A program made the position numbers. From an uncultured Gemmatimonadales bacterium (lineage in GTDB: Bacteria; Gemmatimonadota; Gemmatimonadetes; Gemmatimonadales; GWC2-71-9): a stretch of DNA of 64,000 nt. The DNA is taken from positions 1 to 64,000 of the forward strand of contig CAVSQW010000008.1 of the NCBI GenBank assembly GCA_963730185.1, in the 5' to 3' direction. This document shows, one piece after another, positions 39,001-42,000 of the stretch (positions are counted from its first letter, which is position 1; the number at the start of each line of letters is the position of its first letter).

Positions 39001-42000
39001 GGGCGCGCCGGTCGGGCGACAGCGCGAGTCCGCGCAGGTTGAGGTCGACATACAGGATGGGATCGACGTCGTACCCGAGCCGGATGTTCCTGACCTGGTG
39101 GAGACTTCGGACGAAGAGACCGGCGCCGACCAGGAGAAGAACCGACAGCGCTCCCTGAACCAGGAGCAAGGCGGTTCGGGTCCGGGACCGCTGATAGGTA
39201 CCCTCCCGGGCCCCGATCCGGAGCGCGCCACCCACGTCGGTCCGCCGGGCCTGGAGGATCGGGGCCAGGCCGGTGAGCACCCCGACGGCGAGGGTGGCGA
39301 GGCCGGCGAACGCGACCGTCCGCCAGTCGATCAGGGCCCGGGTGCCGCCGGCGTCGGGGAGAAAGAGCGAGCGGAGCAGGGAACCGCCCCAATGCGCCAC
39401 CAGCAGGCCGGCGGCTCCCCCCAGAGTCGCGAGCAGGACGCTCTCGGTCAGCAGCTGCGCGAAGAGGCGGGTCCGGCTCACGCCGAGGGCCAGTCGGAGG
39501 CCGATCTCCCGGCGCCGCCGGAGGGCCCGAGCCAGGAGGAGGTTCGCCACGTTGGCGCAGGCGATGAGCAGCACGATCAGGGCGACGCCGCCCACCCACT
39601 GGGCCACCTTGCCGACCGTGGTCTGATTGGGGCCCCGCTCGGTCTGGATCGGTGACACGATCGCCCGCGGGTGCGCGATCGTCGCCGGCGGCAGCTCGGC
39701 ATCACCGGTCCGCTCGACCGCGTAGCTCCGCTGGTACGCCTGGCTCAGGTCCGCGGCCGCGGCGGCCTCGCTCACGCCCGCCTTCCGCCGGACCAGAAGC
39801 TCCATCCAGCCCCAGTCGTACTTGGTATAGTAGGCCGCGCGGTCGGGCGTCCACTCGACGTGCGCCCCATACGTCGTGATCGGGATGAAGGCGGCCGGCG
39901 GCGGCCCCTCCTGGACTCCGACGAACCCGGCCGGCGCCACGCCGACGACGGTGTAGACGACCGGCCCGATCTGGAGGCCGGTGCCCAGCACGTCGGGTCG
40001 GCCGCCGTAGCGGGTTTGCCAGAGCGCATGGCTCAACACCACCACGGGCGATCCCTCCGGGACCGAGTCCTCCGCCGGGCCGAAGTACCGTCCCAGGGCC
40101 GGCGGCGCGTCGAAGAGCTCGAACAGGCTGGCGCTCACCGGCGCGACCCGCATCTCGCGGGTGTCCTCCCCGACGCCGACCGCCATCCGGGCGTCGAAGG
40201 TCGCGGCCATCACGTCGAACGAGCTGGTCGTGCGGACCAGGTCACGGTAGGTCGTGTAGGCGATGTTGGGCTCGTAGTTGGTGCCGCCTCGGCCCTCGGT
40301 GACCAGGTAGACGCGATGAACCCGAGCGGGGTCGCCGAGGAAGGGCGGAGGGCGAAAGAGCAGCCGGTCCACGATCCCGAACATGGCCGCGTTGGCCCCG
40401 AGCCCCAGGGCCAGGGTGCCGACGACCGCCAGGGTGAAGCCCGGGCTGCCCCGCAGCATCCGCGCCGCGTAAGCCAAGTCCCGGGTCACGATCTCCAGGG
40501 CCGAGAGCCCGCGGGCGTCGCGGCTCTCTTCCTTGATCCGGTCCACTCCCCCGAAGGCGAGCCGCGCCCGGCGCCGGGCCTCGGCCGGCGAGAACCCCTG
40601 GCGCTGGTACTTCTCGGTTTCGCGCTCGAGGTGGAAGCCGATCTCGTCGTCGAGCTCCCCTTCGACGGCGCCCCGGCGGATCAGGGCCCGCCAGCGGTAC
40701 TTGAGGTCGCTCCACAGCGCGCTCAGCATCGGATCCTCCCGGTCAGCCCATGGCCAGAACGAGCGACACCGCCTTGGTCAGCCGCTCCCAGGACGTGGCT
40801 TCTTCCTCGAGCTGCTTCCGGCCGGCCCGAGTGAGCTCGTAAAACTTGGCCTTCCGGTTGTTCTCCGAGGCGCCCCACTCGGCTCGGATCCAACCCCGGC
40901 GCTCGAGCCGGTGGAGGGCCGGGTAGAGCGATCCCTGAGGAACCTGGAGCACGGCCTGGGACACCTCGTGGATCCGCTCCGAGATGGCCCACCCGTGCTG
41001 CGGCCCCAGGGAAACGGCCTTGAGGATGAGGAGGTCGAGGGTGCCTTGCGGCAGGTCGAGATGTGGATCGGTCATGGAGTCCCCTTGTGCTTCTACAAGA
41101 GCTAGCGCTCTTCTTGTAGAAGCGCAAGGGGGGGAGGTAGGGATTTGGGAGTAGGGAGTAGGGAGTAGGGAGTGGGAGAGGGAGTTGGGAGTAGGGAGTT
41201 GGGAGTAGAGAAGGGAGTCGGGAGTTGTGGGGCGGGACCAGGTGCCCCACCGCCCACTCTCTCTCCCCCCACTCCCCACTCCCCACTCCCTCCCTACTCC
41301 CTACTCCCTACTCCCTAGTCCCTACCTCCCTCCCTACTCACCAGTCACCACTCATCAGTCACTACCAAGGCAAGGCTGGCGTCCGCCAATCGTCGGAGCG
41401 AGACTTCCCGTGCCGAGCCGTCTTTCCACCTTCATTGGGATCCCTCATGAGTCAGCTCAACGCCACCGAATGGATCTGGCGCAACGGCGAGTTCGTCCGG
41501 TGGGACGACGCCCGGGTCCACGTCCTCGCGCATTCGATGCAGTACGGCTCCTCGGTCTTCGAGGGGATCCGGTGTTACGAGACCGATCGCGGTCCGGCCA
41601 TCTTCCGGCTCCGCGAGCACCTCGAGCGGCTGTTGGGCTCGTGCAAGATCTACCGGATGGAGGTGCCCTATTCGGTCGAGCAGCTGCTGTCTGCGTGCAC
41701 CGAGTTGGTCGAGAAGAACGCGGTCTCGGCCTGCTACATCCGGCCGATGGTGCTCCGGGGCTACGGGGCCGCGAGCATGGTCCCGTTCGCGAGCCCGGTC
41801 GAGGTGTTCCTGCCGTGCTGGCCTTGGGGGGCCTATCTGGGCGACGAGGCGTTGGAACAGGGGGTGGACGTCTGCGTGTCCAGCTGGAACCGGGTGGCGC
41901 CGAACACCTTGCCGTCGATGGCCAAGATGGCGGGCAACTATCTGAGCGGGATGCTCACCAAGATGGAGGCGCTCGCCCACGGATACGCCGAGGCGATCGC

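Follow-up and report, generated by a model that had tools for sequence, protein, structure and literature searches.

The window, the first 64,000 nucleotides of contig CAVSQW010000008.1 (assembly GCA_963730185.1) of an uncultured Gemmatimonadales bacterium, contains two long inverted repeats built of short tandem units. The first of these, here designated the type copy, and the second are located among the following features.

40743..41075, minus strand: padR-family regulator gene (PF03551, E 4e-21), whose start (ATG at 41075) faces the type copy
41083..41131, no strand: palindrome upstream of padR, CCCCTTG..CTTCTACA..TGTAGAAG..CAAGGGG, conserved in five congeners; putative padR operator
41124..41232, no strand: type copy, 5' arm, made of C-poor tandem GGGAGTA-type heptamers
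41233..41244, no strand: centre (loop) of the type copy, about 12 nt
41245..41353, no strand: type copy, 3' arm, made of the complementary G-poor units CCCTACT/CCCCACT in tandem
41447..42430, plus strand: class-IV aminotransferase (ilvE-like) gene (PF01063, E 6e-48), whose start faces the type copy
43443..43518, no strand: 5' arm of the second copy, 3 nt past the TGA stop (43438-43440) of an EamA-family gene
43538..43676, no strand: 3' arm of the second copy, whose end adjoins the stop of a convergent NicO-like gene
43678-44514, minus strand: NicO-like gene, the convergent partner at the second copy (43443-43676)

For the type copy, TRF detected a period of 7 with 13.9 copies at 41132-41225 in the 5' arm, and weaker units prolong the 3' arm to about 41366. 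The RNA minimum free energy (MFE) of the region 41124-41353 is -172.8 kcal/mol (z = -9.8), which was equalled by none of 200 shuffles. An earlier survey of this genome had described the family as placed just after stop codons; the type copy is actually located between the divergent starts of padR and the aminotransferase gene. The hairpin begins exactly where the padR palindrome ends, and no hairpin is present there in the congeners. The neighbour gene of the type copy is different in all five congeners, and the empty-site comparison covers the padR side only.

Related hairpins are dispersed throughout the genome. Using the survey's criteria (24-nt windows with at least 13 G and at most 1 C, or the reverse, and neighbours less than 200 nt apart), we obtained numbers identical to those it had reported, with 84 pairs in which the G-arm precedes the C-arm and 6 in the opposite order (binomial p 1e-18). 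The 84 pairs are 48 to 251 nt long with MFEs of -23.5 to -170.3 kcal/mol, and 76 of them beat shuffles by more than 20% in folding energy. Heptamer units account for 55 of the 84 copies, and the second type is made of GGGGAGGGAT-type 10-mers. All of these counts retain six genic pairs as well as C7:519017, where the "pair" consists of a G-arm and an unrelated C-rich stretch flanking a tRNA-like stretch. When searched on both strands against Rfam, the hairpins gave only sub-threshold matches to generic eukaryotic miRNA-precursor models, all below the gathering scores, and these were set aside as generic long-stem matches.

Fresh gene calls (4502 genes; genome 87% coding) placed 78 of the 84 copies in intergenic regions, including 35 between convergent genes, 30 between tandem genes, and 13 between divergent genes, and the remaining 6 within genes. 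The share of convergent spacers (35/78) compares with 637 of 4485 junctions overall (p 7e-11). At least one gene end lies upstream of 65 of the 78 intergenic copies; the median distance from stop codon to first repeat unit is 4 nt (100 adjacent gene ends), and in tandem spacers the copy sits close against the upstream stop. Similarly, 160 of 167 unit-bearing arms are intergenic. The rescan and our own gene calls thus bear out the survey's finding of a real family with fixed arm polarity, sited at gene ends. TAG is the stop codon of 50 of 100 hairpin-adjacent genes and of 1098 of 4493 genes genome-wide, and the nearness to stop codons is largely explained by the TAG and TGA triplets that lie within the repeat units.

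A link overlooked by the survey concerns PF05635, the family of the 23S-rRNA intervening-sequence protein (S23p/IVP). This genome has exactly two PF05635 matches, each located within arms of the hairpin type, and there is one such cassette per arm type.

C15:320355-320720: PF05635 gene of cassette 1, with decamer G-arm 320216-320290 and C-arm 320725-320765
C15:484479-484895: PF05635 gene of cassette 2, with heptamer G-arm 484329-484385 and C-arm 484907-484960

Across the order, the flanks of 24 of 30 PF05635 loci are inverted arms scoring above 10 shuffles, and judged by eye these arms are mostly tandem 7- to 8-nt units. A PF05635-like gene flanked by GGGAGTA arms also occurs in an assembly from a lichen metagenome that is labelled "Sphingomonas bacterium". 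We searched for other cargo between solo arms and found the IVP cassette alone, apart from one 3.8-kb four-gene span between arms that was taken as coincidence.

Each related genome has its own unit, which is common to the arms of its IVP gene and to its dispersed arrays. Matches to (CTCGGCA)x3 numbered 353 in G012, 449 in G008, 442 in G011, and 219 in G013, with none in G007, and (GGACTCA)x3 gave 260 matches in G007 and none in four other genomes; the reversed-pattern control carries no information for this unit, whose reversal yields the same array in rotated form. Likewise, (GGCAATA)x3 matched 22 times in G040 and in none of four others, and (GGGTGTA)x3 matched 30 times in G034 and 62 times in G032. 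In 400-kb samples from five genomes compared by IVP status, TRF found no period-7 arrays in the IVP-negative G006 and G005, and the IVP-positive genomes had 23 (G013), 6 (G007), and 7 and 15 (two samples of the present genome). G009 contains GGGAGTA arrays without any PF05635 match; its assembly is 94% complete and comprises 370 contigs.

The survey's view that copies were gained by this lineage agrees with a presence/absence comparison across five related genomes, in which all six assessable hairpins were missing at the syntenic congener sites. Both PF05635 cassettes were also missing in four of four syntenic relatives, and the cassette 2 site in G017 is a 7-nt gap from a stop codon to the next ATG. 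Reciprocally, three of three assessable elements of G009 and G019 were missing from the present genome. The positions of hairpins and cassettes coincide precisely with gene boundaries, the first unit in many cases containing the stop codon, and some copies occupy spacers that are only 7 to 23 nt long in relatives.

A 28-mer of the heptamer array matched 39 times here, 16 times in G009, twice in G019, and not at all in the other 38 relatives. The survey's 68 matches to the decamer pattern in this genome were obtained again; the pattern matched none of 40 relatives, and among the 41 genomes searched the decamer type was found in this one alone. The family had also been described as lineage specific, which does not hold for the heptamer, as the exact array (GGGAGTA)x4 occurs at at least 130 loci in other species, mostly cyanobacteria (including Nostoc, Moorena, Okeania, Trichodesmium, and Rivularia) and also several other phyla. 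The polarity is the same there, the partnered loci of other species comprising 25 with the G-arm first and none with the C-arm first.

No near-identical copies were detected among the hairpins of this genome; the best alignments (76% to 94%) cover only parts of arrays, and the loops have no core in common. Hence, there is no direct sign of recent copy-and-paste. A target-site duplication is unreadable because the boundaries always fall within TA-containing units. The similarity between the two arms of a copy barely exceeds that found across copies: for heptamer copies the own-arm score was 0.364, compared with 0.323 across copies, and a copy's own partner arm was the best match in only 5 of 55 heptamer and 1 of 22 decamer copies. 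Copy-specific mirror symmetry was therefore rejected as a general rule. Individual copies do show it, for example the one at C7:262217, with 19 of 19 matching termini.

With confidence only a little above even, we favor the interpretation that the hairpins are gene-less members of an insertion-element family whose gene-bearing members carry a PF05635 gene between like arms. They most likely represent a selfish repeat-armed element similar to the intervening sequences (IVSs) of rRNA. Each element would have a pair of arms in which a short tandem unit, here the 7-mer or 10-mer, is arrayed in inverted orientation, and a gene-bearing member would have between arms of the same kind a small PF05635 gene (S23p, an Avd-like four-helix bundle), which would make it the intergenic counterpart of an rRNA IVS. 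The elements may spread by insertion, after which the arrays would be reshuffled by slippage. The fixed arm polarity would then be an inherited design rather than a selected RNA feature, and the positions could mirror tolerated insertion sites, past stops and in convergent spacers, aided by the presence of TAG or TGA in all frames of the heptamer arms. Effects on transcripts, such as a long 3' stem blocking exonucleases or pausing polymerase, would be a by-product. The heptamer repeats of cyanobacteria and Xanthomonas would be the same kind of thing.

We found no decayed PF05635 genes in the long hairpin loops, where every match had an E value of about 1 or worse; the hairpins thus may, but need not, derive from the cassettes, and the PF05635 gene could instead have settled into pre-existing hairpins. 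The IVP proteins did not show co-phylogeny with the arm unit, as sharing a unit did not make proteins more similar, identity being about 50% in all comparisons.

Alternatively, the hairpins could have been selected by the host as 3'-end stabilizers or as bidirectional terminators that lack a U-tract, the stem in transcripts from either side ending or protecting them. The positions of the 65 copies that follow a gene end, the excess in convergent spacers, and the way in which copies in tandem spacers hug the upstream stop are all in line with such a role. In addition, few gene ends of this genome (51 of 4491) have the canonical hairpin-plus-T-tract, which was present at 3 of 3089 mid-gene controls, and RNase III, which is able to cut such stems and cuts those of rRNA IVSs, was undetected here or in up to 12 relatives in searches (PF14622, PF00636, and TIGR02191) whose controls matched in 8 to 9 of 14 genomes. 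However, 13 copies, the type copy among them, are flanked by divergent genes, and the adjacency to stops is largely explained by TAG and TGA inside the units. One copy, at C15:289950, lies between pyk and a gene (MBL) that starts 8 to 23 nt past pyk in five of five relatives, a spacing which suggests that this copy is probably inside an operon; at another site, the convergent genes of the relatives abut with no terminator between them. The arrangement of an intrinsic terminator, in which a GC-rich stem is directly followed by a U-tract, was not the rule, as a run of at least four T's was present within 40 nt beyond only 4 of 168 hairpin sides. Conventional stem-plus-T terminators do occur in congeners, one of them following the EamA orthologue. 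Sense-strand G·U enrichment was considered as a mark of selected RNA structure and rejected, since sense-direction G·U and A·C mismatches numbered 53 and 60, respectively, with no excess of the former. The lack of a U-tract and of a G·U bias, together with the hairpin in a likely operon, leaves the terminator role unsupported, and we judge it improbable.

The arrays might also be plain microsatellites, each expanded locally through slippage from a seed that arose by chance at a stop, in which case they would be immobile and the link to PF05635 coincidental. According to Mrazek 2007 (cited by PMC4679880), heptanucleotides outnumber other long simple repeats in many bacterial species. The unit order is unique to each copy, there is no common core, the arms are not copy specific, and at one site the stop context of a relative, AAGTAAGG, resembles a proto-unit. 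Nevertheless, slippage alone gives no inverted partner of fixed polarity, as seen in the ratios of 84 to 6 in this genome and 25 to 0 in other species, and would leave unexplained why both PF05635 genes lie between arms, as well as the unit matching and the presence/absence differences across genomes. That some copies fill what are very short spacers in relatives also argues against growth in place. We therefore give this explanation little credence.

Less probable still is a role as G-quadruplex/i-motif regulators, as proposed for the heptamers of Xanthomonas and Nostoc, in which a quadruplex of the G-arm in DNA or RNA would modulate transcription or translation. The survey had pointed to this aspect, and a check of the motif alone agrees with it to the extent that (G3+N1-7)x4 is present in 41 of the 84 5' arms, in 48 of the 84 3' arms when these are read as their complement, and in at least one arm of 60 copies; related units form quadruplexes in vitro in the experiments described in the cited parts of Rehm 2015 (PMC4692102). 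On the other hand, neither arm has the motif in 24 of 84 copies, the adjacent complementary arm favors a duplex stem, and the equally abundant arrays of the same design in sister genomes use the quadruplex-incapable units CTCGGCA, GGACTCA, and GGCAATA.

An artefact of error-prone long-read assembly can practically be dismissed despite a completeness of 82% and at least one gene (pyk) that looks frameshifted, because the same architecture is present in the fragmented multi-contig assemblies of congeners G009 and G019 and at 25 loci of other species, and the arms are imperfect and sited at gene boundaries.

Several known repeat classes share part of this design. The short tandemly repeated repetitive (STRR) heptamers of filamentous cyanobacteria are defined as direct arrays rather than hairpins. 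Like STRRs, the repeats described here are tandem intergenic heptamers, and the exact (GGGAGTA)x4 arrays of cyanobacteria are partly G-first hairpins; unlike the hosts of STRRs, the host here is a soil bacterium of 70% GC. REP/BIME elements and MITEs are dispersed intergenic inverted repeats that cluster in convergent spacers and at the 3' ends of genes and are commonly regarded as non-autonomous relatives of an element that carries a gene. A feature common to these and to our family is variable presence at orthologous sites (six hairpins and both cassettes, absent from syntenic relatives). However, a common consensus or conserved core, defined terminal repeats, and a readable target duplication were not found here; the arms are microsatellite arrays that vary from copy to copy, and the gene linked to the family does not encode a known transposase.

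The survey regarded the hairpins as a new kind of element, yet the cited sections of Rehm 2015 (PMC4692102) already describe G-rich heptamers (GGGAATC in Xanthomonas and GGGGA(C/T)T in Nostoc) near stop codons, including 70 to 75 convergent inverted pairs per genome that are potential stem-loops. According to these sections, those repeats, like ours, have a 7-nt unit with a G-tract and a quadruplex motif, are dispersed and over-represented outside genes, lie within 50 bp past the stop on the sense strand, and are rare between divergent genes; the tandem G-tract heptamer and the non-coding, stop-proximal placement are both found in the present genome. In contrast, the family described here, known from its sequence, consists mostly of long two-armed hairpins and includes a 10-mer type, and the same sections draw no link between the heptamers and PF05635. 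The TAACTGA repeats of Beggiatoaceae, cyanobacteria, and Bacteroidetes are comparable in that, in the portion of MacGregor 2015 (PMC4679880) used here, one heptamer is found across scattered phyla, adjoins gene boundaries, and has an unexplained mode of spread. Unlike our hairpins, they are almost all direct (169 direct sets and 1 indirect) and lie just upstream of start codons.

The 23S rRNA IVSs with S23p that occur in Coxiella, Leptospira, and other bacteria are regarded as selfish, and the Coxiella IVS has a stem with a variable number of tandem GACAGAT heptamers beside S23p (Warrier et al. 2016, PMC4990558, in the parts cited). The two C15 cassettes resemble this arrangement in that a PF05635/S23p ORF is enclosed by terminal inverted repeats that form a long stem. 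The elements described here differ from it in being intergenic and, for most copies (84 hairpins), in lacking an ORF. A further difference, which counts against the favored interpretation, is that RNase III, the enzyme that excises rRNA IVSs, was detected neither in this genome nor in up to 12 relatives. No IVS is present in 23S rRNA itself, as the single gene (C10:9823-12772) measures 2950 nt against a 2925-position model, indicating that there is no insertion.

As a bolder and more tentative proposal, which we think is more likely wrong than right, the cassettes (as autonomous form) and the gene-less hairpins (as non-autonomous form) could belong to a single pan-bacterial mobile-element class uniting STRRs, the Xanthomonas and Nostoc heptamers, and rRNA IVSs, with new copies possibly arising by templated unit synthesis onto DNA ends at gene boundaries rather than by cut-and-paste. 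Such synthesis, if true, would explain the copy-specific unit order, the 5'-to-3' direction of the G-rich strand toward the centre, and the genome-specific unit. If the link is causal, PF05635, a family of unknown function related to the Avd protein of diversity-generating retroelements, would be a candidate for what drives a very widespread class of repeats. Tandem-heptamer repeats between bacterial genes were recognized decades ago, with their origin and function unexplained, and this genome provides a clean case. The hairpins also break short-read assemblies, supply or shift the stop codons of neighbouring genes, and form a natural set of very stable stems of graded length.

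Two long inverted repeats of the G-arm/C-arm design lie in the window:

41124-41353, type copy, a long imperfect hairpin with a GGGAGTA-type heptamer 5' arm, a loop of ~12 nt, and a C-rich 3' arm
43443-43676, second copy

C is nearly missing from the 5' arm of the type copy; the complement of this array, rich in C, forms the 3' arm. As RNA, the type copy folds at -172.8 kcal/mol (z = -9.8), which was equaled by none of 200 shuffles. When the survey's scan was repeated over the entire genome (G000; 17 contigs, 5.27 Mb, ~70% GC), it gave identical figures, i.e., 84 pairs with the G-arm first versus 6 with the C-arm first. 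Since the G-then-C order is identical on either strand, this split reflects a genuine polarity. The 84 pairs are 48 to 251 nt long, and their minimum free energies span -23.5 to -170.3 kcal/mol; for 76 of them, the fold beats that of shuffles by more than 20%. By unit, 55 are built of heptamers and 22 of decamers, and 7 are of unclear class. Unpaired arms bearing such units, with the complement absent within 260 nt, were seen at ~50 sites (e.g., C8:373048-373174 and C13:92291-92364). Solo G-arms lie mostly, on the sense strand, 3' of a stop codon, and solo C-arms mostly before a start or a convergent stop codon.

Real and striking, the family belongs with known inverted arrays of heptamer repeats. 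G-rich heptamers of Xanthomonas and Nostoc are described as located near stop codons and rare between divergent genes, with 70 to 75 convergent inverted pairs per genome (Rehm 2015, PMC4692102); inverted pairs near stops had already been published, and the survey's "new kind of bacterial terminator/REP-like element" is not supported. Another heptamer with a scattered distribution has been reported (MacGregor 2015, PMC4679880, where Mrazek 2007 is cited for the abundance of heptanucleotide repeats), and Nostoc heptamer repeats are reported to affect promoters (Pradhan 2022, bioRxiv).

GGGAGTA hairpins of like design also occur in two congeners with fragmented multi-contig assemblies, G009 (16 matches) and G019 (2 matches); at that stringency, the array was found in none of the remaining 38 relatives. 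The exact array (GGGAGTA)x4 occurs at at least 130 loci when one genome per species is considered. Among the matches listed, most are from cyanobacteria, e.g., Nostoc, Moorena, Okeania, Trichodesmium, and Rivularia, and further hosts are Anaerolineae, Planctomycetota, Terriglobales, Vulcanimicrobiota, Alphaproteobacteria, and Bacteroidota. The complementary arm is on the 3' side at 25 of the 130 loci listed and on the 5' side at 0; none was detected within 250 nt at 105 (20 of these with an incomplete flank). These occurrences contradict the label "lineage-specific" and also led us to reject an assembly artefact as the source of the hairpins. The decamer array has 68 matches in G000 and 0 in the 40 relatives.

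G000 contains exactly two genes of PF05635, the 23S rRNA intervening sequence (IVS) protein family (IVP or S23p; E ~1e-31), both bracketed by arms:

C15:320355-320720, cassette 1, PF05635 gene flanked by decamer G- and C-arms
C15:484479-484895, cassette 2, PF05635 gene flanked by heptamer G- and C-arms

Each hairpin type therefore has one gene-bearing copy. The best-supported reading, toward which we lean with some reserve, is that of a selfish insertion element with repeat arms, similar to an IVS, that carries PF05635 in its gene-bearing form. In Coxiella, the IVS stem beside S23p, a protein whose structure has been solved from Xanthomonas, is described as containing variable heptameric repeats (Warrier 2016, PMC4990558); a search of article full texts for a tie of PF05635/S23p to dispersed heptamer repeats outside rRNA yielded the Coxiella paper only.

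PF05635 is present in 26 of 41 genomes of the order, and the gene's flanks form inverted arms scoring above 10 shuffles in 24 of the 30 loci examined. These arms, judged by eye, are mostly tandem 7- to 8-nt units that vary from genome to genome, and in pattern counts from a few related genomes, the unit of the IVP arms is also that of the same genome's dispersed arrays:

Matches to unit patterns in genomes with that unit in the IVP arms and in comparison genomes
(CTCGGCA)x3: G012 353, G008 449, G011 442, G013 219; comparison, G007 0
(GGACTCA)x3: G007 260; comparison, 0 in 4 others (reversed-pattern control void)
(GGCAATA)x3: G040 22; comparison, 0 in 4 others
(GGGTGTA)x3: G034 30, G032 62; comparison, G026 17, G040 21, G007 0

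In 400-kb samples analyzed with TRF, the PF05635-positive genomes had 23 (G013), 6 (G007), and, for two samples of G000, 7 and 15 period-7 arrays; none were found in the two PF05635-negative congeners sampled, G006 and G005. A PF05635-like gene also lies exactly between GGGAGTA arms in another phylum, in a lichen-metagenome assembly labeled "Sphingomonas bacterium" (L063). No PF05635 gene was detected in G009, although GGGAGTA arrays are present there; unit-specific clustering of the PF05635 proteins was not seen, and the hairpin loops hold no remnants of the gene. The IVS analogy predicts RNase III cutting of the stems (PMC4990558). RNase III models (PF14622, PF00636, and TIGR02191) had no match in G000 or in up to 12 relatives (G001 to G008 and G025 to G028), some of them 99 to 100% complete, and matched 8 to 9 of 14 well-known control genomes; the Gemmatimonadales may lack canonical RNase III.

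Synteny with five congeners (~70 to 85% DNA identity) made six hairpins assessable, with C7:278400 left out for lack of syntenic flanks:

C7:262217, absent in 3/3 syntenic relatives
C7:267356, absent in 3/3; the relatives' convergent genes are within ~10 nt of each other
C7:271063, absent in 1/1
C15:289950, absent in 5/5; pyk-to-next-gene spacer of 8 to 23 nt in relatives, so that the hairpin lies within what is probably an operon
C15:294879, absent in 2/2; between a stop codon and an apparent SRP RNA gene
C15:300313, absent in 5/5; spacer of 32 to 49 nt in relatives

At C15:300313, G021 ends in AAG TAA and G000 reads AAG TAG-GGAGTT. Both cassettes are absent from 4/4 syntenic relatives, and at the cassette 2 site, G017 has a 7-nt gap from the stop to the next ATG. 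G000 in turn lacks all three of the G009 and G019 elements that could be assessed. Absent alike at the relatives' sites, hairpins and cassettes behave as gains at gene boundaries after these species diverged. Upstream of padR, a palindrome (window 41083-41131; CTTCTACA..TGTAGAAG, flanked by CCCCTTG/CAAGGGG), probably the PadR operator, is kept in five congeners. It ends in GCAAGGGG, is followed by a hairpin in 0/5 congeners, and has the end of inter-genome homology exactly at its outer edge.

Some further features were noted around these sites. The conserved stretch upstream of dnaX (C15:295030-295140; GCCCCAGGTCCGAAGGG..AGCAGCGCTAAGCG..CCTGGGGCAC, followed by a T-run) resembles the SRP (4.5S) RNA gene, and the heptamer hairpin nearby occupies the site of the presumed promoter spacer of G004. 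Pyruvate kinase (C15:290045-291460) changes frame near its 3' end, giving an odd Pro/Arg/Gly-rich called tail where relatives end in KIEEV; this is probably a long-read assembly indel error, consistent with the 82% completeness score. Downstream of the gene after cassette 2, ~250 nt of C-rich, G-poor sequence (C15:485380-485650; CCCTCC plus heptamer units) has no complementary partner; relatives have ~65 nt there.

There are no near-identical copies among the hairpins and no shared loop core, and a copy's two arms resemble each other little more than arms from different copies do, which argues against simple copy-and-paste. Target duplication is not readable because every unit contains TA. Fast slippage may erase copy identity, or the copies may be assembled in place, one unit at a time.

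Genes of G000 called by codon-usage log-odds (4502 genes, 87% of the genome) place 78 of the 84 copies in intergenic regions (35 convergent, 30 tandem, and 13 divergent) and 6 inside genes. Convergent spacers are enriched (35/78 versus 637/4485 junctions overall; p 7e-11), and the tandem-spacer copies adjoin the upstream stop. At the 100 gene 3' ends adjoining a copy, the median gap between stop codon and first repeat unit is 4 nt, the unit contains or abuts the stop at 25, and TAG is the stop at 50, versus 1098/4493 genome-wide (p 3e-8). The survey's placement "just after stop codons" does not hold for the type copy itself, which lies between two gene starts: padR (minus strand) has its ATG at 41075, and a class-IV aminotransferase gene begins at 41447. 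Much of the pattern needs no terminator function, since the heptamer arm (GGGAGTAGGGAGTA, GTGAGTA, and GTGACTA) has TAG or TGA in each of three frames, so that any frame entering it terminates at once.

A terminator-like role would fit the position pattern at gene ends and in convergent spacers, as well as the scarcity of ordinary stem-plus-T sites in G000 (51/4491 gene ends versus 3/3089 mid-gene controls). Other results speak against it: 13 copies, the type copy among them, are in divergent spacers, one (C15:289950) is within the probable operon, and one is at a site without any spacer in relatives. Moreover, a U-tract is present at only 4 of 168 hairpin sides, a sense-strand G·U bias was not seen (53 versus 60), and congeners, judged by eye, use ordinary terminators, e.g., 3' of the EamA orthologue. 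A general quadruplex role is ruled out by sister families of like design with units without G-tracts (CTCGGCA, GGACTCA, and GGCAATA).

Orthologues of the EamA-family gene (window 42469-43440; loci L184 to L197) have an ordinary bidirectional A-tract/GC-stem/T-tract terminator in ~10 of 14 congeners. G000 has a heptamer hairpin in its place, and the neighboring gene is also different.
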